Shown here: positions 23,617-42,724 of the stretch, piece by piece
Position numbering within the stretch: the first letter of the stretch is position 1
How the letters are laid out: each line of letters opens with the position of its first letter
Origin: Balamuthia mandrillaris
Lineage: Eukaryota
Length of the DNA stretch: 64,000 nucleotides
Assembly: GCA_031835245.2 (NCBI GenBank)
Contig: JAVKOQ020000003.1
Location: forward strand, 310,001-374,000
Reading direction: 5' to 3'
Made by a program: the position numbers and the translations under genes
Notes under the pieces: generated by a model
Told to the model about the DNA's origin: nothing
Database searches by the model: none
The model's input: the letters and a program-made list of their open reading frames with translations, nothing else

Positions 23617-26600
23617 TCAAATCAACATATCTTCCTCATCGTCGTCTTTCATGCGAGAGGCGATGCCATCTACCTTCTTCTGCAATTTCTTGAAAGCATG
23701 TTTCATCTTCAGCTCCATGTGTACCATTTGAGCATTGTGCTGCTGCAATGCTGCTGTTGCTGTCTCTATCTTTCTGTTGGTACTTACGCCTCCTCCTTCT
23801 GCTGTGGCTTCCATCTCCTCTTCTTCTGGCTCCTCATCCATGGCCTTCTTTTTGGCAATCTTCTCACCTGGGGCTTGTTGTCTGCTCAAAAGATACGCGG
23901 AGTATGGCTGACCTCCAAACCTGTAATCCGAAGCATTTCCTTTCTTCTTTGCTGCCCCTCCAGCGCTTCGGTTCATCAGGTTTCGAGCGGTGGCTGACAC
24001 TCGAGGTTGTCTTGCTGCTGGAGGGGGCACAGGTGGAACGTAATGATGGCGGCTTTGTGCGTTCAGGTCTTCGAGTTCTGTATCACTGTGGAAGAAGCCT
24101 TCCTCTTCGTCGGCGATGGATACCAAGGTTTTGCTTCTCGTCAATTTCTTGAATTTATCACTCTGTTTTATTGACAGTGTGAGAGAAAGAGAGCAAAGAG
24201 GAGAAAGGGGGAAGCGAGAACCTTGGCAGGATCGGCGTAATACATCAACACAAGGAAAGCATAGTCAAGATAGTACTCCAAGTTGGCTTTCTCAATAACC
24301 TCCGCATAAGAAGTACTTAACATAGCAATCAACAAGTTCAACAACATGATCGCTATAACAATTATGTGAGAAAACGTGAAAACAACGAAAGGAGGGAATG
24401 AAAAAGGCACAAACTTGATATGATCATGTAAATAAGGTACAACACGATAGCTCCAAAGTGAATGTCGCTGGCCACTGTGTCAAAGTCTCCATCTCCAACT
24501 GCTGTTCGAAACATGGACACCCTTTTATTTTGTCAGAAAGCAAACAATGGAAGATGCAGCAGAAAGAAGGCAAGATGAAGAAAAAGACAGGTTTGTAAAA
24601 AAGAAAAACATACATAGACCAATAAATAGCGCGATAAGACCAAACGGTGGAGCCCAACAAAAGGAACAACGCCAGGCTGAACGAGAGAATGAATACAATA
24701 AAGACGCTTCCCCACACAATCAATGCCCTTAACATCTAACAAACTAGAAATAAATTTTGTGTTTTTAAGAAAGAAGAAGACAAGCATTACCCGGCGGACG
24801 ATGATGAGCAGCACTCCCACGTTCTGATGAACACGCATAAACTTGAGCAGCTTGGCCCAGCCCAACACCAAAACTATTTGGTGTTATAGCATAGAGAATC
24901 AAGTGAAGGTCAAAAAAAAAAAGAATCGAAAAGAAGATAAAGGAGTAAGGAAGGTAACTGAAGGCGATTGTATGGAACTGATAGTCTCTGTAACGGGCCA
25001 ATCGATTAAAGCTGACAAAGTCAGTATCGTCAGCCTCCCAATCCAAGCTATCGATGATTCCGATTTCGATGAACCGGAAGATGGCCAACACGATGAAGCC
25101 CAGATATATAGTTACATCCACCGCGTTCCACCCGTTAAGGAAGTAACGACGCTTCTCAATGATTATCTGTTGTTTTTATGCAAGTTTTTCAGCATAAAAG
25201 AAGGACGAAGAAAGAAGGGAGAGAGAACCTCTTTGATTTCTATGACAACTGAGATGGCGACCCAAATGCCAATGACGATCTCCATCGCTAGCTCTGCCCA
25301 ATCTCCACTGGAGTTATACTTGCTTTATGCAGTTAAAGAAAAAACAAAGAGAACAACAGAGAGAGAGAGAGAAAGAGAGAGCGTGAGAGAGGAAGAAAGG
25401 ATATCTGTAAAGTTTGACGGTGAAGAACTCTGAAGATGGAAACACGACGCCGGCAGCTGGCATGTCCCACATGATGCGAACAACACTGAATAGGTTGATG
25501 TTTGGATTGTACACTGCCTTCAAGTCAGTTCACCGGCCTTGAAAGGCAAAGAAAGAATGAAGAGAAAGCAACAAACTCGTAAACTCGATGAAGACGCCAC
25601 GAGTCAATTCGTCCAACCAGTTGTTCTCATAAAGTTCAGATAACTTTTCGAACGTGGCGTTGGCATCTCTAGTGTTCAGAGTCACTTTATAGCCTCCCCT
25701 CTCAGGAAACAACTCTTCCAACATACTGATGAACGATTCGCTGTCTGAAGGCTCCGAATAAGTCCATCTGTAGTCCAGTGGTTCCCAAATCAAAATAGGT
25801 TAACAGAAATAAGCACAGAATGAAGAAAGCAAGCACGAACCCTTCTCCACCAGGACCGAACGTGCCTTTGGACTCGGTTTCATCGTGATCGTACTCACCA
25901 TAACATTGTCCATTCTTGGCGAGAGCTTCATAGTCATCGTTGATAAGATCGCAGGAGCCAGGTTCTACGCGAAACTGGCGGAGCTGAACTTTGTTGGTGA
26001 CCACTCGGTTGTAACGCATAATGAATGAAGACTCTGGGGAAAAGAAGTTTATGAAGAACGGTCCTGTTATCCACTATTAGGTTGTTTTTGTTAACGACAT
26101 CATTCCAGAACAAAGGTAGGAGAGAGTGAGTCAGAGAGATGAGCAAGCAGAGTGAAGAAAGGAAGAGACAACAAAAAGAAGAACGTACAGTCCATATTTC
26201 TGGTATTTGGTCGGTATCAGCAAAGAACTTTTTGAAGTTTCCAGGAGCACCCGTTCTGCTGTCGAAGGGACGATCGATGTAAAACTCCTCTCCCACCGTC
26301 CTCACTCGGATGGAGTGTTCAAAGTAGTATGCCTTCGAATGCAGGTCCGTACTCGTCAACAGCATTACTGGCAAACAGAAAAACAAGAGCTTGTTCGTCA
26401 CAAACAAATATATAACATGAGAATATCAAATAAGATACGTACTGACTGTAAACAAAACAAGAAACACGAAATAGGACGAAAAACTGAGCAAAAAACGGAC
26501 TCTGGGATGGGCCAACAAAGCTCTCCAATTTGCGGACCACCATTGTGGATTCCAGCTCAACTTAAGATCCCATGTTTTGTTCAATGTTGCTTGAATTCTG

Positions 26601-26786
26601 CGATGCTAATTGTTTCACAGTTAAAATAGGTACAGGGAAGGTAAAGGTTGGCGCAACAAGAAGAAGAACGAGTTGTTGGTACCTTCATTATAGCACCTAT
26701 TCGATTTTCAACAATGAAGAAAAGGGGAGATGTGCCTCCTGATGTCCTGTTCACAGAACACATGATGTCAAAAAAAGATTTTAAAG

Positions 26787-26852
<66 letters not shown>

Positions 26853-28280
26853 CAGAAGAATTTAACCTGGCATATTTCAGAGTGGCATTACAGTCCAATA
26901 AATGTTCGGTGATCTGCAGTGCGTCTCTGCATTGCTTCTTTGCCTTATTGAACCCCAAAAAGTCCGACTCGGAAGCTCCTTGCAACTTGTTGCGAGCTTT
27001 GTGCAGCCTCTCCAAAGCGTTGCAAAGAGGGGTGGCGTGCCGGCCGTCCAAAGGATCGACGTCAACACCGTGTTTCAACAAGAAGCGAAGTGAGTTGACC
27101 GTTCCGTATTTGGCTGCTATATGAGTTGATGTAGTATTCTTGAACGTTCTCATTTTCACTATACCAATGTTAGACCAGTGGTCGTTCGGTAGAAGAGGAG
27201 AAAAATAGGGAAACGGTACCGTTTTGGCGAGCATCAGAGATGAGGAAGCGAAGAAATTCAACATCATCAGTGCGTCTGATGGCATACAGGAGTGTTGCTC
27301 GTTTGCTCCGTTTGGTAATCGTCTCATAATCTTTTCTTTCAGGTGTTCCTTCCTATAAGCCCCAAAACGAGGAGAGGATGATAAGAAAAGAAGGAGAGAG
27401 AGAGAGAGGAGAGAGAGAAAGTGCGAACCTTTGGAACGCCACTTATGTCGATGTGGTGTTTGAACAATAAACGAGCAACCTCGAAGCCAACTTTGCATTT
27501 AATGGCAAGCGAGAGCACTGTGTGGTGCTTTGAGACCAATGAGTAAGCAATCCGAGGGACGAGAGTGAAGAAATAAAGACAGAGGAGAAACAAGAAAGAG
27601 CTTACGTGCTAATGGCATGGTCATTGTGGATTGGTTCGTGTTTAAAGAAAGCCGTGAACAGTGAAAACGGAGAACAAATAGGAAGAAGAGAAACAAAGCA
27701 CTTACATTCTAACAAGCAAACATAAAAGCAAAACAAAAGCCCGTTACAAAAAAAAAAAAAAAAAGGTTAAAAAGAGGTATTAGTGACAAGAACAAAAGGA
27801 GACTGAAACAAACATCCTGCAGTAAGGAATGAGGTGAGTTTATTGCACAAGGACGAAGAAAGAGGGAGCAAAGAAAGTTTCGTACTTCTTCTAAAATGTC
27901 GTCTTCAGAGAAGGCATCGGTGGCGAGCATCAGGTCCAACATTTCAACTCTTCCAAACTGAGCGGCTATGTGAAACGCATTTCGGCTTTCCTGTACAATA
28001 AAGTTGAAAGAAAGAACGAAAGAAACCACAAGAAAGAAAGAAAGAAACGACAAGAAAGAAAGAAAGAAAGAAACGACAAGAAAGAAAGAAACCACAAGAA
28101 ACTACAAAAAGAAACACACCTCTTTCTCAGTGAGGGCAGCCGAGCTGGCTATATCGCTGCCTTTTTTTCCTTCGTGAGCCGAAGCATCCTCTTCTTTTAT
28201 GAACTCTATAGACTGCAAACATGGAGAGAAGGAGAGAGAGAGAGAGAGAGAGAGAGGGATAAAGAGAGAGAGAGAGGAAA

Positions 28281-28324
<44 letters not shown>

Positions 28325-29239
28325 ACAACATAAAACAATGTAATAAGCGAGCAGAGAAGGAAGAGTTAAGCGAAAAGAGAGCAGAGAGACAGTGAAACGA
28401 GAGAACAGAGGAGACGAACTTTAACGCTAGGGTCAGCACCGAGGTCTAAAAGATAAGCTGCAATGTCGTCGTGGCCGTACTTGATGGCAAACTGAAGCGG
28501 CGTGTAAGCAACTGGGTTGCCTATTCCTTTTGCCAAGTGCTTAAAAAATATTTGTTGAGAACTTCGAAGAAAGCAGAGGGAGTGAACAGAGAGAGAAAGG
28601 GAGAGAAGCAAGTGAACAAAGTGGAGTGAGGATGGCGTAAAGTACCTCTCCAGGAAGGCAAGCCTAGGGAACCGGCGGCATTCAACAGCGATACGAAAAA
28701 CCAAAGCGTAAGCACAAAACAAAAAAAAGAAATAATAAAATAAGAGGCACCTGCAGGTTGATATACGCCTCGACGTCCTTAGTGTCTTCCACCAGCTCGA
28801 CCACAGCGGCAAGGTCTCCGCTTCGGACGGCAAAACAGAGGTCCATAGCTTCCGGGCTTTCATCCCAGTCCTGTACGAGAGCTCTTCTCCGGTTATGGTC
28901 CTCTGCGTTTCTGCTCTTCTTCCTGCCGATGTTTCTCAGCCGTTTTCGTCGACCGGCTCCTTTTTTGAGGGTGTTCTTCACCCTGCGGAGCCAAACGGCC
29001 GACCTTTTCAGCGGGGGACTCGCTTCGTCACCCTCATCCCCCTGGTCAACGTCCTCATCCAAGTAGGCCAGTTGGTCGGCTGAAGTTCCTCCCTCTGCGT
29101 TAGCAAGTTGTTTTGGTGGTTGTTCCGGTTCTTCGTCCATCTCGGTTTCGATATTGCTGTCTTCTGTCTCCTCTGAAAATGAATGCTGATTGGCGTCTTC
29201 TTCTCCTTCCCATATGCTGTCTTCTTCATGACTGCTCAT
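23617..29239 (-). CDS. Ankyrin-repeat + polycystin-2 (TRPP/PKD2)-like cation channel, paralog A
   Basis: Ankyrin repeats (TPLQFAIKYG, NAFHIAAQFG, HIAAKYG); TOP-domain motifs QLRQFRVEPGSC and WLDELTRGVFIEFT.YNPNINLF; pore FRTAVGDGDF; S6 MLLNLLIAMLSTSY. Confidence 0.88.
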
Positions 29240-31470: not shown

Positions 31471-34400
31471 TCACAAAAGCATTATATTTGCTTCATCATC
31501 TCCAACTCTTGACAAGACATCATCCATTTTCTTGTGCAACTTGTTGAGACTGCGTCCAATCTTTTGTTGCACACTGTCCAATTGTTTGATGGCTAGCTCC
31601 AAGTTGGCGATCTCTCCGCTCATAAGCGATGCAACTGCTCCGCCTTCTAGTTCTCTTCCTCCTTCGTCTTCATCGCCAATGATAGTGAAGCTCTCTTCTT
31701 TGTCTTTTTGTCTCTCTGTTCCATCTTTGTTGTTGGCTGAAGAGCGTATCCCTGTTGCGACGGTGTTCTTTCGTTGCACTTTAGATACTAGAATCTTGGA
31801 GTAACCATCACTGCCAAACTGAATGATGTTTCTCTCCTCCTTCTCTTTCTCTTTCCTTTTGCTCTTTCGCAGACGACTCTTGCTTCTCCCTTTGTTGTTG
31901 TCGTTAAGGAAGAAGTCACTTATGTTGCTGGAAGACCAGTCGGAAGGCGGAGGAGGGACCGGAGCTTTACATATCGCCATTTCTTCCAGCTCCGTGTCAC
32001 TGCTGTTTCCATCTCTGGAAGTTTCGTCATCAAAGTATTGCTTGCCTGCTTTCTGTTTGATAAACCTTTTGAACTTGTTATCCTTTTATGTTTTTTTTTT
32101 TTAAAAAAATTGGTAACCACGTTAGCACAATAGGAAGAATGCGTATTCTTACAAAGAGAACAAACAAGAGGCTTACCTTCGTGTAGTCTTCGTTATAAGT
32201 TAAAACGAGAAAGGCAAAGTTGAGACAGTATTCCAAGTTGGCTTTTTCGATAACCTCAGCGTAGGATGTACTCAACATAGCAATCAACAAGTTCAGCAAC
32301 ATAATACCTGTTTTAAACAACCATTGCTGTTAGATTTTATGTCATAGAAGAGAAGCAAAGACAGAGAGAACAAAATAGAGAGAGGAGAGAACGAACTGGA
32401 AATGATGATGTAAATGAGATACAGCATGATAGATCCAAAGTGAAGTTCTTGAGATGCCACATCGAAATCTCCATCTCCAGTCGCTGTACGAAACATGGTA
32501 ACCCTTTGCAAAGAGAAAGCGTGAACCTCAGGATTGCAGAAAAGAAAGAATGGGTGTTGCGTACATGGACCAATAAGTGGCACGATAGGACCACTCTGTA
32601 GAACCCAACAAAAGGAACAAAGCTATGCTGAACGAGAGAATGAACACTATAAACACGCTTCCCCACACGAATAAAGCCCTCACCATCTGTTTCGGAACCA
32701 GTTCAGCTTTTCTTTTTGTTGCATATTATCTTTTTTCTTGCAGGAAGAGAAGCAACATACCCTATTGACCACAATAAGTAGAACTCCGATGTGTTGCTGT
32801 ACTCTCAAAAACTTTAAAAGTTTGGCCCATCCCAACACCAAAACTATTTTGGTAGGCAGTATAGTTAGCAGAACATGAGGAAGAGAGAAAGAGAGATAAA
32901 GTAAAGGAGAGACAGAGAGAGACGAGAAACGGAACGCAACTCAAAGCAATAACGTGGAACTGGTAATTGCGATACCGGGCCAAACGTTGAAAGCTGACAT
33001 AGTCGGTGTCATCAGCCTCCCAATCCAGGCTGCTAACGATGCCAACCTCTATGAAGCGGAAGATAGCCAGCACCACAAAACTTACGTACATCAGAACGTC
33101 CACTGCATTCCATCCGTTCAGAAAGTATTGACGTTTCTCCACAATCACCTGCATAAATATTGTGAATATTGCGAAGAAGAAACGAGAAAAATCACCTACA
33201 ATAACAACCAATGAAGAAGACAAACAACTAACAGAAGCAACAAACCTCTTTGATCTCAATGAGAACGTAAACGGTAACCCAAATGCCAATAACGATTTCC
33301 ATTGCTAGTTCAGCCCAATCCCCAGATGATTCATATGTGGTTCGTTATTAAAGAATCTATCAACGGATAAGAACACAAAAAATGATGGAAAAAAAGAAAA
33401 GAACACAGAAAAAAGAACATGTGAAAAGGATATCTCAAAAGCTTCACGGTGAAGAACTGAGAAGAAGGATAAACAATGCCACCGCGAGGCATGTCCCACA
33501 TGATCCTTACAACGCTGAACAAGTTGATATTTGGATTGTAAACTGTGAACTCTATGACGACGGCACGTGTCATCTCGTCGATCCAGTTGTTCTCATAGAG
33601 TTCTGTCAGTTTCGTGAATGTGGCGTTGGCATCCCTTGTGTCGAGAGTCACTTCGTAGCCTCCCCGCTCAGGAAAGAGTTCTTCCAGTTTACTTATGAAT
33701 GATTCTCTGTCAGAAGGTTCTGAATACGTCCAACTGTTGTTCCGTAGAAATGATAGTAACGTTAGACAAAGCGGCCTATAAAAAGAGACAACAAAATGGA
33801 AGAATTCTCTCCTACCCTTCGCCGCCAGGACCATAAGTACCAGTGAACTCGTTCTCTTCAGAATATTCTCCATAACATTCACCGTTAACAGCCAATGCTT
33901 CATAGTCGCTCGTGGCGAGATCGCATGTGCCCGGTTCCACTCGGAATTGTCTAAGTCGCATCTTGTTGGTAACGATCCGGTTGTAGCGCATCACGAAAGC
34001 GGTTTCGGGTACAAAGAAGTTGAGATATAACGGTCCTGTTATCCACTTTATGTGCATTTATTTTTTCAGTTACCATGATCGGAAAGAAACAGGGTGACGA
34101 ACGAAAAAGGAGGTTTTCGTACAGTCCATATTTCAGGAACTTGATCAGTATCCGCAAAGTACTTCTTAAAGTCGCCTGGAGTTCCCGTTCTACTGTGAAA
34201 AGGACGATCGAGGTAAAATTGTTCTCCAACAGTTCGCACTCGCAATGATTTTTCAAAGTAAAAAGCCTCCGAATGAACATCGGTATTGGTCAACAACATC
34301 ACTGTTAATCAGAAAAGATACGGAACGGTTCAGAACTTCATACAAAGCCATTAACGCAATCGAAAGCCCAGCAATATGAAACTTACTGACAGTAAACAAA

Positions 34401-34851
34401 ATAAGGAAAGCAAAGTAGGTGAGGAAACTGAGCCAGAAACGAAACTTGGGGTGAGATAGCACATATCCCCAGTTTTCTTGCCACCAAGCAGGATAGATCT
34501 GGAGGTTGAGTCTCCAAGTTTTGTTTATCGTGCTTTGGATACTCTTGTGCTGTAATGCAAAATAGTTTAGGCTTTACGAACGAATAAAGAATGAGAAAAA
34601 GAGAGGCATTACTGTCATCAAGGAACCAATTCTTTGAGTTACTATGAAAAGGAGAGGAGACATGCCGTCCGAAGTTCTGTAGTTGACCATCGTTATTGAT
34701 ATTCATAACAAAGAACATTAGCAGAAAAAGTGACTACTTACTTTGCATATTTAACTGTGGCATTGCAATCCAGCAAATATTCTGCAATCTGGAATGCATC
34801 TCTATAACACGTTGAGGAACAAAAACCCGTGTGTGTATATATGTGTGTGTG

Positions 34852-34884
<33 letters not shown>

Positions 34885-34894
34885 ATATATGTGT

Positions 34895-34984
<90 letters not shown>

Positions 34985-37614
34985 TTCGTAACAAGAGAAG
35001 TCATACTTGCACTCTTTGTTCGCTTTTTGTAGGGCCTGTGAATCCAGTTCTTGAGCTTGCCTCAGTTTGTTTCGCATTTTTGCTAGCTTTTCCAAAGCAA
35101 GACAAAGTGGAGTAGAATAACGAATGTCCAATGGATCCACTTCCGCTCCGTTCTTCAAAAAGTAACGTAACGTATTCAGGGAACCGTATTTGGCTGCAAT
35201 GTGAGTTGGGGTAGTGTTCTTGAACGTTCGCATGTTTACTGTATTGTGTTCATTCAATCGAGTTTAAGTTAAAGAATGAAAGAGAGGAAGCAGAAAAGCA
35301 GAGGAGGAGGAGGAGGAAGAAGAAGAAACAAAAAGAATTAGAAGAACCACCGTCAAGATGCACATCGGTAATGAGGAAACGAATAAAGTCGACATCATCT
35401 AGTTTTTTAACGGCGTAAAGGAGAGTCGCTCTTTTGCTTCTTTTTGTAACTGTTTCGTATACCACTCGAGCTTGTGTATCTTCCTGATAGGTTTTGTTAG
35501 GGTTAAGCAAATAATTTTTTTTTCAAAGAGCAACGAAGTACTTGGGGAATGCCGCTTATGTTTACATCATACTGAACAAGCAACCTAGCGACCTGTGGTC
35601 CTACTTTGCCTTTAATAGCCAAAGTGATGACATTGTGATGCTGTTCACGAAAAGAGAGAGGCACTTAGTGTGGTTGAAGACTATTAGATACAGTCGGCCG
35701 AAGAAAGACGTACGTGCTATTATTCAGAAAGTGAAGCGCATTAGAATGAATAAACGATAAAGGAACAAACAGGAGCATACTTACATTCTAAGGAACGAGG
35801 TCACGTAGATAAGAGGTCATAGCAGAACAAGGAAAAGAGAAGAAAGATATAACAACAGAGGGCAGACAAAAGAAGATATTCATAAGGATAATGTGAAAAA
35901 TGCTCAAGTAGACAAAAACAGACGTACATCCTAATGAAAACGCACAAGAGTCAGTTATACTACCCACATACAAGAAACCATCCGAAAGACTGACCTCATT
36001 TAGCAAGTCCTTCTCAGCAAAGCGCTTTCCTGAGAGCATAAGCTCTATCAACTGTGCTCTTCCATATTGCGCAGCCACATGAAAAGCATTGCGACATTCC
36101 TGTTGAATGATAATAAGTGGGAAATATACAGAAAAGAAATCATAAAGAACTTCAAAAGTTATTCACCGCTTTTCTGTATCTACAACAATCATCACCAGGT
36201 CTTTTGGAAGTCGTATGTAATTGTACTTCCTCGCCTTCTACATCTTCTATGTATTCCAGAGACTGCCTTGTTTTGTTAATGTCATAAATAACAAAAGAGA
36301 ATGTGCTGTAAAGAAGCGAAAGAAGAAAGTAGAAAGAAGAAGACTTTGAAAAACAGCGAGAGAACGAAAGCAACCTTAACAAGAGGATCAGCACTAGCGT
36401 CTAGCATGAATGCCACGAGGTCGTCATGTCCATACTTAATGGCGTACTGTAAGGGAGTATATGAAACAGGATTTGAGTTGTTTCGGGACACGAACTGTTT
36501 TCCGTTCGGTTTGACGGCGGGAAAATGAGAGATGGATTAAGTTAATGAAAAAAAAAATAGAAGAAGAAGAAGAACAAGAAGAACAAGAAGAAGAAGAAGA
36601 AGAACAAGAAGAAGAACAAGAAGAACAAGAAGAACAAGAACAAGAAGAAGAACAAGAACAAGAAGAAGAACAACAACAAGAACAACAAGAAGAAGAACAA
36701 GAACAAGAACAAGAACAAGAACAATAAGAACAAGAACAAGAACAATAAGAAGAAGAACAAGAACAAGACAAGAAGAAGAACAAGAACAAGAAGAAGAACA
36801 AGAACAAGAACAAGAACAAGAACAAGAACAAGAACAAGAACAAGAACAAGAACAAGAACAAGAACAAGAACGAAGAACAAGAATGAAGAACGAAGAACAG
36901 AAGAACAGAAGAACGAACGCAAGCAAGCAAGAAAGAAAGAAACGACAAGAACAAAAGAAAGAAAACGAAAGGAAATCATAATCATAACATTACCTCTCCT
37001 GGAAGATAACACTGTGTTGGCACGAAAAAAAATACAATGAAAGAAATTTAAGTCAGAAGACGGTAACCAAAACAAAAACAAGAAGAGAAGAGAAGAAGAC
37101 AACTGAAAATACTAACTCGTTGGTTAAGAAACTTGGCAGGAGAGCCCTTCAACTCCTCCAACACTTCCACCACAGCACTCTTCTGCCCCTCTCGAATGGC
37201 CAAGCAGAACTGGTACAGTGCCGACCCTTCGGCGCTGCTTCGCAAGTGCCTGTTTTTCTTGGAAGGAGAGATCAGATGTTTCTTCCGCATGGACTCCAGC
37301 CTCAGTTTGTTCTTCCTGACACGCTCAACAAAGCCGCTCATTCGTCGCTGGCTCAGCTTGCCGCTGCGAGCGAGCGGTGGTTCTGCTCGGTGGGCATTGC
37401 CTTTGGTTTGTTGGGCTTCTTCTTTTTCTTGTTGTTGTTGTTGTTGTTGTTGTTCTTCTTCCGTTTCTTCCTCGTCGGACTCGTCGTCGGACGTATCTCC
37501 TTGGTGGTGGTGGTCTTCTTTTTTCTTTGGCTTTAGGTGGTGATGCTCACTCTCGCGTTCCTCCGAAGAGGAGTTACCAGAGGAGGACATAGCAGCGGAG
37601 CTGGACGCGGCCAT
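31471..37614 (-). CDS. Ankyrin-repeat + polycystin-2 (TRPP/PKD2)-like cation channel, paralog B
   Basis: Same motif order as paralog A: TPLQYAIKYG, TPTHIAAKYG, RLRQFRVEPGTC, WIDEMTRAVVIEFTVYNPNINLF, FRTATGDGDF, MLLNLLIAMLSTSY. Confidence 0.88.
34829..34980. repeat. (GT/AT)n plus (GA)n compound microsatellite inside an intron
   Basis: Directly visible. Confidence 0.95.
36558..36900. repeat. (GAA/CAA/GAACAA)n intronic microsatellite
   Basis: Directly visible. Confidence 0.95.
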
Positions 37615-38643
37615 CGGTGTTATATAGGCCGCAGCGGTTTGCGTCGTCTGTATTGTTTCAACAAAAAAATAAAATAAAAATTAGGCTGATGACAAACAAC
37701 AGATAACGCTCGTTAACCTCTCCGATTTTGGTCCAAGTTTTCTTGTTTCACTCATTTTCTCCTTTGTAGAAAAATTCGAACACTTTGCGTTACTCCCGTT
37801 CATTAATCAATCCTAATTAGGATCACGGAGTTAAAAATAACCATACTAGGTCAAAGGAGTTAATGAATAGATCTGATCACCCAATCATATCCGTTGGTTA
37901 ATTGATCTGTTTGTAACCGGAGAAGCTCGCAACGGTTTATGTTTTCGCTGATTTGAGCAAAGTGGGTGTGAGTTAACAGGGGCTGGTGCACTTGCCTTTT
38001 GGGCTGCGGTTGTTGCTATGGGCGGGAAGGCCCAGGCCCCTCCACGTTAAGGTCCGTGTTGCTGTGTTATGTGCGCGGAGAGGAATACGAAACAAGCGAA
38101 AGAAGAAAAGAAGAACCCAAGCGACAAAGCGGAGGTGAGCGAACTGTTCTTTTCTTTGGCTTCCTTTTTGTTTGCGGTCTTCGGGAGAGACGTGCAGCAC
38201 GCGGACGATAAGCGATGGTTCAAGTTCAAGGGGGATCTACTTTGATGCCGCTCTGAACGCACGTCCGGAGCTATATATACACGCGGCACAAGATCCCGTT
38301 CTATTGGGTGAGGCTGCGTGAGTTGAAGGCGTTTAGTGGAGAGGAGAGAGAAGTGGAGGAGTACCTGAAACCGTTTAAGAAGAAGCAGGAGGAGAGGAGG
38401 CGTCATGGTTTGGAACGAGAGGAAGAAGAGGAGGCATTCTTTCATTCGACGATGAACGTATGATGAGAATAAATGTGTGGAAGATTTAAATGCAAGTGGT
38501 TACTGGCAAATGCATTGGCGGGATTGTTGTTGTTGTTTAACCTCGGTTCGGTTGTGGATGCTCGTTCAAGCCCGTCTAAAATCGAGGAATATGAAATAGA
38601 CGTTGAGGGAGAGGGAGAGGGAGAGGGAGAACCTTGGCTAAGG

Positions 38644-39490
38644 CTACATGGATTGATTCCACCTTTTCATTCCTAGGCTGTGTTTGACGTCTCTTTGCAC
38701 AAGCACGCTGGCAGTCGATGTCAGAGAAAGGACAGGTACGTTAGGGTATCTGCGTCTGAAGAAGCGCATCTCTCGATAGTCAGCACTGAATACACTGCTC
38801 CATTTGGATGCACACTGCGCCTCGTCAAACACAACGCGACCTAGTTTGCCGTGATACAGAGTGTCCAACGAGCTCTCTATCTTGGCGAAGTATTTGGCTC
38901 TAGCAGGAGTAAGAAAGAGCACCATGATGTACGGCGTGGGGTGCGCAGCAGCAAAGAGTTTGCTGGTCTCAGCGTAGGGAAGCTGCGCGCTTAAGTGGGC
39001 TACAGGGATGCCACGACTCTGCAAGAATGCTACTTGATCATGAATGAGAGAAAGGAGAAATAACAATGGTCATTCCACGCTCACATGCTGCTGGTGTAGC
39101 TGTAGAGTGGCTACTTAAGCGAACGTGACAACAAGGAGGAGGAAAATGATGAGAGGGAGCAAACGTGATAACATAAACTTTTACCACCTGCAGAAGGCAA
39201 CAAAAGCAAACAGTCGCGCTTGGACATCGTGACGTTGATTGCCTCTCGTTGGAAAGGACGAAAGCCTTGGTGGCCAAAGAGGGTGCTATTGAGTTGTTGG
39301 ATCTGCTCTTCCCACGAGAATGCTCTCGCCCAATTCTGCTTGCACCCTACTTTTCCTTTGTCAGTTGGTGTTTCTGTGTCTGTTTTATTAGCGAGTTTCG
39401 AATGGTGAATGAATAATCCGATTCTCGCCAACACAATCGATAAATTCAAAAATTAATTGTTTTGCTTCATCGTACGAGGTTGTTCCATAA
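38644..39490 (-). pseudogene. Degenerate partial RecQ helicase copy (first RecA-like domain only)
   Basis: FGHQGFRPFQREAIN, LPSAGGKSLCYH, VFDEAQCASKWS, YPNVPVLSLTSTA; frameshift near 39048; ends at 38644 before the second domain. Confidence 0.65.
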
Positions 39491-39603
39491 AATCGTTGAT
39501 TTCATCCAACCTCGATCGTCCGCCCTCGTTCTTCCGTTAATGGCGTCCGCTTTCCAACGTAATAGATTCAATCTGACTTTTCTCAGTCTCAGTCTGCTTC
39601 TCG

Positions 39604-42724
<3,121 letters not shown>

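Follow-up and report, generated by a model that had tools for sequence, protein, structure and literature searches.

Three consecutive one-codon exons in an ankyrin-PKD2-like channel gene of Balamuthia mandrillaris

In this study, a run of three consecutive exons of only 3 nt each, GAT, AAT and CAC, was observed in an ankyrin-repeat and polycystin (PKD2-like) channel gene of Balamuthia mandrillaris, within a stretch of 64 kb of genomic DNA that we refer to as the window. These triplets are real one-codon exons, as an earlier note on this DNA had proposed from the letters alone; the nine bases are present in both of the RNA reads that cross the junction, and they are conserved in a tandem paralog of the gene. 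We have here three consecutive one-codon exons with RNA support and with conservation through a duplication, in a supergroup for which no report of microexons was found. Such an array offers a compact test of how the spliceosome handles exons that are nearly devoid of exonic sequence.

Layout of the array and RNA reads

The host gene, referred to as paralog A, was modelled on the minus strand at 23617..29239 with 24 coding exons and 1194 aa, while its tandem copy, paralog B, lies upstream on the same strand at 31471..37614 with 24 coding exons and 1219 aa; these are the lengths of models built by coordinates, including a predicted exon of 18 nt. By direct reading of the minus strand, the three triplets of paralog A were found where the earlier note had placed them, each with AG/GT flanks, and the reported flanks and intron lengths of 69, 105, 97 and 78 nt proved exact. 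The exon upstream of the array (27886..27990), an ankyrin repeat, ends in DILEE with the donor side GAAGAA/gtacga, and is followed by a GT-AG intron of 69 nt (27817..27885) that is spliced out in the RNA reads, the exon GAT for Asp (27814..27816; cag/GAT/gtttgt), a GT-AG intron of 105 nt (27709..27813), the exon AAT for Asn (27706..27708; tag/AAT/gtaagt), a GT-AG intron of 97 nt (27609..27705), the exon CAC for His (27606..27608; tag/CAC/gtaagc) and a GT-AG intron of 78 nt (27528..27605), also spliced out in the RNA reads. The exon downstream (27429..27527) has an aag/CAC acceptor and starts with HHTVLSLAIK in an open frame. All three triplets, which are seen in the RNA reads, are in phase 0, and the division into 3+3+3 is the sole GT/GC-AG parse of the nine bases in the 358-nt span, with the minimum intron set at either 20 or 40 nt; the same parse fixes the two inner introns. 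The nine-base string is absent as a contiguous run anywhere in the 64-kb window.

Four of five listed sequencing runs, X1 to X4, were compared with positions 26870-28000. The RNA sample comprised six reads on these positions from runs X3 and X4, of which approximately 3% and 5% were read, respectively. Both of the reads that cross the junction of paralog A, from run X4, include all nine bases and neither of them skips any triplet. In these reads, position 27885 is joined to 27527 with eight letters in between that match neither side; these letters, reverse-complemented and led by a G that coincides with that of the donor at 27885, give GAT, AAT and CAC. The remaining four reads lie at 26870-27061, hence no read fuses the flanking exons directly, and a cDNA joining GAAGAA straight to CACCAC, which the earlier note had named as the observation that would speak against it, did not occur among the RNA reads obtained. 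Runs X1 and X3 gave no reads at the array junction within 26870-28000. The two junction reads are offset by 17 bases in the depth table and may be the mates of one 167-nt fragment, or two molecules. Since there are two reads from one run, with about 3-5% of each run read, minor skipping would go unseen.

A diverged DNA contig from run X2 spans the array at less than 90% identity and keeps its intron layout. Its comparison with the window listed 25 substitutions, 18 intronic and 7 exonic, and the exonic differences all fall at codon position 3, four in the upstream exon and three in the downstream exon. In this contig, CAC is unaltered together with its AG/GT, but the G at position +5 of the CAC donor is changed (27601); AAT and part of GAT fall so close to where the aligned pieces end that differences there would not be listed.

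The tandem paralog, the annotation and chance expectation

In paralog B, the same triplets occur on the minus strand at the equivalent protein position, as predicted exons GAT (35928..35930), AAT (35785..35787) and CAC (35714..35716) that are assigned from sequence conservation, with array introns of 64, 140, 68 and 73 nt. Canonical flanks and introns of 64-140 nt accompany all six triplets of the two paralogs. The nine triplet bases are identical between A and B (9/9), as against 61-65% identity of the flanking exons, where the same codon is used at 27 of 64 positions with the same residue; the two proteins have 680 of 1162 aligned residues in common (58.5%, calculated before the 18-nt exon was added to the models). 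The paired array introns of A and B are barely alike, with 7-48 of 200 shuffles matching their scores. We infer that the four array introns are older than the duplication that gave rise to A and B. Tandem duplication of a unit of intron and codon was also considered as the origin of the array and rejected, as the similarity of the array intron pairs does not exceed that of control pairs: their scores are equalled by 6-16 of 300 shuffles at best, and unrelated intron pairs score as well as the array pairs in 49/136 and 49/120 cases.

With reference to the domains, Pfam detected Ank, Polycystin_dom and PKD_channel above the cut-offs in the NCBI model P0004 of paralog A (PF20519, E 1.5e-27; PF08016, E 5.5e-27) and no NACHT domain, and the best match among solved structures was human polycystin-2 (E 5e-41, residues 500-994). 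The predicted Balamuthia channel thus has the polycystin (TOP) and PKD channel domains in common with polycystin-2 and the TRPP channels, but differs from the polycystin-2 matches in an extra N-terminal ankyrin domain that lies outside the matched region. Fusions of ankyrin and polycystin domains were also seen in Cavostelium and Cyanophora (P0030, P0033, P0032). A search for orthologues that span the linker, by words near the query length, gave 26 matches of which only the Balamuthia proteins were close; HMMER against 1.84 billion representatives gave one non-Balamuthia fragment, P0108, beginning just past the linker; none of 456 shorter candidate proteins spans it, and a metagenome scan for the linker gave 80 pattern matches with none confirmed. 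P0108 is an orthologue fragment of 345 aa on a contig of 1037 bp, labelled as an 'archaeon' MAG, and is probably eukaryotic in origin.

The expectation of the earlier note that gene finders would miss these exons was borne out, as D-N-H is missing in all four retrieved NCBI models of A and B. The flanking exons are fused directly in P0003 and P0004 (paralog A) and in P0001 (paralog B), the Balamuthia mandrillaris protein to which one paralog B exon is 100% identical, while P0002 includes GAT but continues into the intron behind it (D-V-C-F-M). Since four of four models are wrong at the ankyrin hairpin, other microexons have probably been missed in the annotation of this pathogen. A third Balamuthia paralog, P0005 (KAL6075621.1), lies on another contig, and at its residues ~345-397 the model reads through intron-like sequence at the equivalent junction, which suggests that the same microexons may be hidden there.

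The omission of D-N-H from all these models could be taken in favour of another explanation, by which the triplets are chance look-alikes within a single intron of 358 nt, the reads having originated in a strain or paralog with the nine bases contiguous. These genes do have other long introns, of 207 nt in A and 499 nt in B, and the RNA run is not necessarily from the strain of the window. Nevertheless, we give this explanation almost no credence, and it is largely refuted by the X4 reads, which are 95-100% alike to paralog A against 61-65% for paralog B in the same exons. The intron layout retained in the diverged DNA contig and the disagreement of the NCBI models among themselves at the array junction are also against it. 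The triplet match of paralog B tells against chance as well: when the B span was shuffled 30,000 times, all three flanked triplets of paralog A, together and in order, never appeared, with a product of single rates of 6e-7.

Considered singly, such a motif carries little weight. The window shows no enrichment of isolated AG-NNN-GT, with 14 on the plus and 17 on the minus strand at length 3 as compared with 6-27 for lengths 1-24, and at least three bare AG-NNN-GT fell within the 358-nt span in 110 of 20,000 dinucleotide shuffles for paralog A, and in 805 of 20,000 in the same test on the span of paralog B. The scan for YAG-NNN-GT arrays that the earlier note had suggested for the genome was run on the 64-kb window, where no 3-nt candidates other than those of the A and B arrays formed chains at intron spacing; it drew on 7 minus-strand and 4 plus-strand 3-nt candidates with 4 neighbour pairs, and its filter also passed one pair of 5-nt candidates. 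What places the array above chance is the identical triplets in paralog B, their presence in the RNA reads and their being the only such chains in the window. A splice-site-matrix scan of single AG-N(k)-GT motifs in the 64-kb window did not separate the real microexons from background, and no array was found among nine other high-scoring candidates examined there. The triplet TCA at 26443-26445 was tried as a 3-nt exon and rejected, being the end of an ordinary exon.

Splice signals and the predicted ankyrin hairpin

In genes with short introns, the spliceosome generally pairs splice sites across the intron, and an exon could then be of any small length. The array introns of 64-140 nt compare with the other 36 GT introns of both genes, whose median is 83.5 nt, in agreement with the earlier description of their lengths as typical, and the mean intron is 113 nt in the genome of another Balamuthia strain (10.1101/2025.02.25.640156, a preprint that also reports 23 libraries of strain V039, encystment among them). 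A G at donor position +5 is present in all six microexon donors as against 22 of 38 other donors of A and B, and the microexon donors, with scores of 5.6-7.9, lie above the leave-one-out median of 5.43 for the others (Mann-Whitney p = 0.01). The acceptors before the triplets are unremarkable (1.4-7.3 against a median of 5.36 for the others, p = 0.16).

The likely role of the three residues was examined with an ankyrin profile of 143 repeat pairs (141 distinct) at 33-residue spacing from 33 fetched proteins, anchored on an ankyrin motif, in which Asp stands five residues before the motif Thr in 86 of the 143 pairs. The full paralog A isoform aligned D-N-H-H-H-T to the profile d-k-n-g-r-T, so that the hairpin Asp falls five residues before Thr and the ankyrin-like linker predicted by the earlier note is restored. 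This full form scored 22.5 bits, the best of eight, and the seven skipping forms scored 18.7-20.7 bits, a small margin of 1.8 bits over the next isoform; in paralog B, the local profile alignment stopped short of the junction. The motif after the hairpin is degenerate in A, with T-V-L-S as compared with T-P-L-H. Successive repeats lie 37 residues apart if the triplets are included and 34 apart if they are left out, as against the canonical 33, and the ankyrin argument therefore rests on the register of Asp and not on length. The alignment supports that D-N-H would set Asp at the conserved position of the predicted ankyrin hairpin, and since the triplets put Asp there, constitutive inclusion is the most likely outcome.

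We therefore favour, with reasonable confidence, that the triplets are included every time, each short intron being read by intron definition, and that they supply the D-N-H of the predicted hairpin. In such a mechanism, the spliceosome would pair the donor and the acceptor of each 64-140-nt intron, so that the length of the exon would become irrelevant, and the strong donors behind the triplets would let nearest-site pairing win. Full inclusion would then be held by selection, as only all three residues would give Asp in the D-x-x-G-x-T register.

A different outcome would be alternative splicing, with up to eight hairpin variants carrying 0-3 of the residues and tuning the binding of the ankyrin domain, as proposed for the codon-sized exons of the Tuber NACHT-ankyrin genes, for which alternative splicing is reported (PMC9815663, PMC4986451). 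The suggestion of the earlier note that each triplet could be skipped to alter the linker holds as far as the phase is concerned, since all three exons are in phase 0, but actual skipping was not borne out, with none in the two junction reads and lower profile scores for all seven skipping forms of paralog A. The middling to weak acceptors would suit such variation, and two junction reads are too few to count heavily against it; on the other hand, the strong donors do not favour it, and codons that stay invariant across paralogs of 58.5% identity are unlike a diversifying cassette. We consider this outcome unlikely.

A 3-nt exon has little room for factors on both of its sides simultaneously, which makes some ordering of intron removal likely. 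An ordered or recursive route would go further, with the triplets added to the upstream exon first and the intermediate sites used again, and the above-average donors would be in line with it. However, neither the length nor the signals of the introns are out of the ordinary, the parse nowhere needs zero-length AG/GT sites, and no intermediate was seen among the six RNA reads; we regard this route as quite improbable, and constitutive inclusion by intron definition is retained as the preferred reading.

Codon-sized exons in other eukaryotes and further features of the window

Very short coding exons are already known in flies, truffles and plants, and the Balamuthia array adds another case. 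The word 'extreme', applied to the array in the earlier note, is overstated, as the nank genes of truffles hold dozens of 3-bp exons and two exons of 3 nt are annotated in Drosophila sowah. The codon-sized mini-exons of Tuber melanosporum nank were reportedly described by Iotti et al. 2012. In these NACHT-ankyrin genes, dozens of 3-bp exons are alternatively spliced, and the splicing has been proposed to diversify the recognition domain of an expanded family of immune receptors (PMC9815663, PMC4986451). The Balamuthia genes resemble nank in that they encode ankyrin repeats, contain several exons of 3 bp and belong to a eukaryote with short introns, but they differ in holding three codon exons per gene in both paralogs rather than dozens, and in a host with ankyrin, polycystin and channel domains rather than an NLR (NACHT-ankyrin). 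They are also unlike nank in that the codons are invariant between the paralogs, neither of two reads shows skipping, and the introns are no more alike than controls.

FlyBase-annotated exons of 12, 3, 3, 6 and 27 nt are given for Drosophila sowah in Supplementary Table 4 of PMC8042270 (with rows ME119, ME3, ME2 and ME19 among them), and the two neighbouring 3-nt exons, GGC and TAT, lie about 1.1 kb apart. As in sowah, the codon exons of the Balamuthia genes are few and fixed and their host is an ankyrin gene, with the ankyrin fold as the common ground; sowah is an animal gene with two 3-nt exons, whereas the Balamuthia array has three in succession, with introns of 64-140 nt, in an amoebozoan channel gene. 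Isolated ultra-short exons are described as 1-nt exons in plant APC11/VPS55 (PMC8831610), a 3-bp exon in Drosophila hth (PMC7392893) and 3-nt exons in Ncam and TnT (PMC8042270). These, like the present case, are conserved coding exons of 1-3 nt that annotation often overlooks, but they stand singly, or at most as two adjacent exons (5 and 12 nt), in contrast to a run of three one-codon exons. In the openly available literature that was searched, we found no published microexons in Balamuthia and no such run in Amoebozoa; the main text of the Balamuthia genome preprint (10.1101/2025.02.25.640156) contains neither 'microexon' nor 'PKD2', and its supplements or curated models may already include the exons.

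Taken with sowah and nank, the array prompts one to ask why codon-sized exons have been acquired repeatedly by ankyrin genes. As a speculation that we ourselves hold to be doubtful, ankyrin hairpins might be a recurring site of codon-by-codon building in unrelated eukaryotes (amoebae, animals and truffles), and Balamuthia might use the splicing of the three exons and of an 18-nt exon as a dial by which hairpin length is set one residue at a time in a sensory channel of the TRP type, differing for example from trophozoite to cyst. This 18-nt exon is a predicted phase-0 microexon in the first intron of each paralog on the minus strand, encoding ACLPGE in A (28646..28663, with a weak acceptor score) and the matching, conserved CYLPGE in B (36994..37011); it would lie in the loop ahead of the first clear ankyrin repeat, and is missing from the NCBI models P0004 and P0001.

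Other splicing features were also noticed in the two genes. A predicted U12-type intron with the donor ATATCCTTT lies on the minus strand of paralog A (25320..25404), ending in AA, or in AG 3 nt earlier, and a predicted U12-type AT-AC intron with the same ATATCCTTT donor occupies the same position on the minus strand of paralog B (33337..33433). The AA-end reading in A gives TVKLYRY, comparable with TVKIWRY in the homolog P0031, and the NCBI models mis-splice at this predicted intron; no literature on Balamuthia and U12 introns or the minor spliceosome was found. Each paralog also has one specific intron on the minus strand, at 25514-25576 in A and 34802-35006 in B, which would represent intron gain or loss after the duplication. 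Elsewhere on the minus strand, at ~38600-42000, the open reading frames of the window include two tandem stretches that we take to resemble coding sequence of a RecQ-type helicase.
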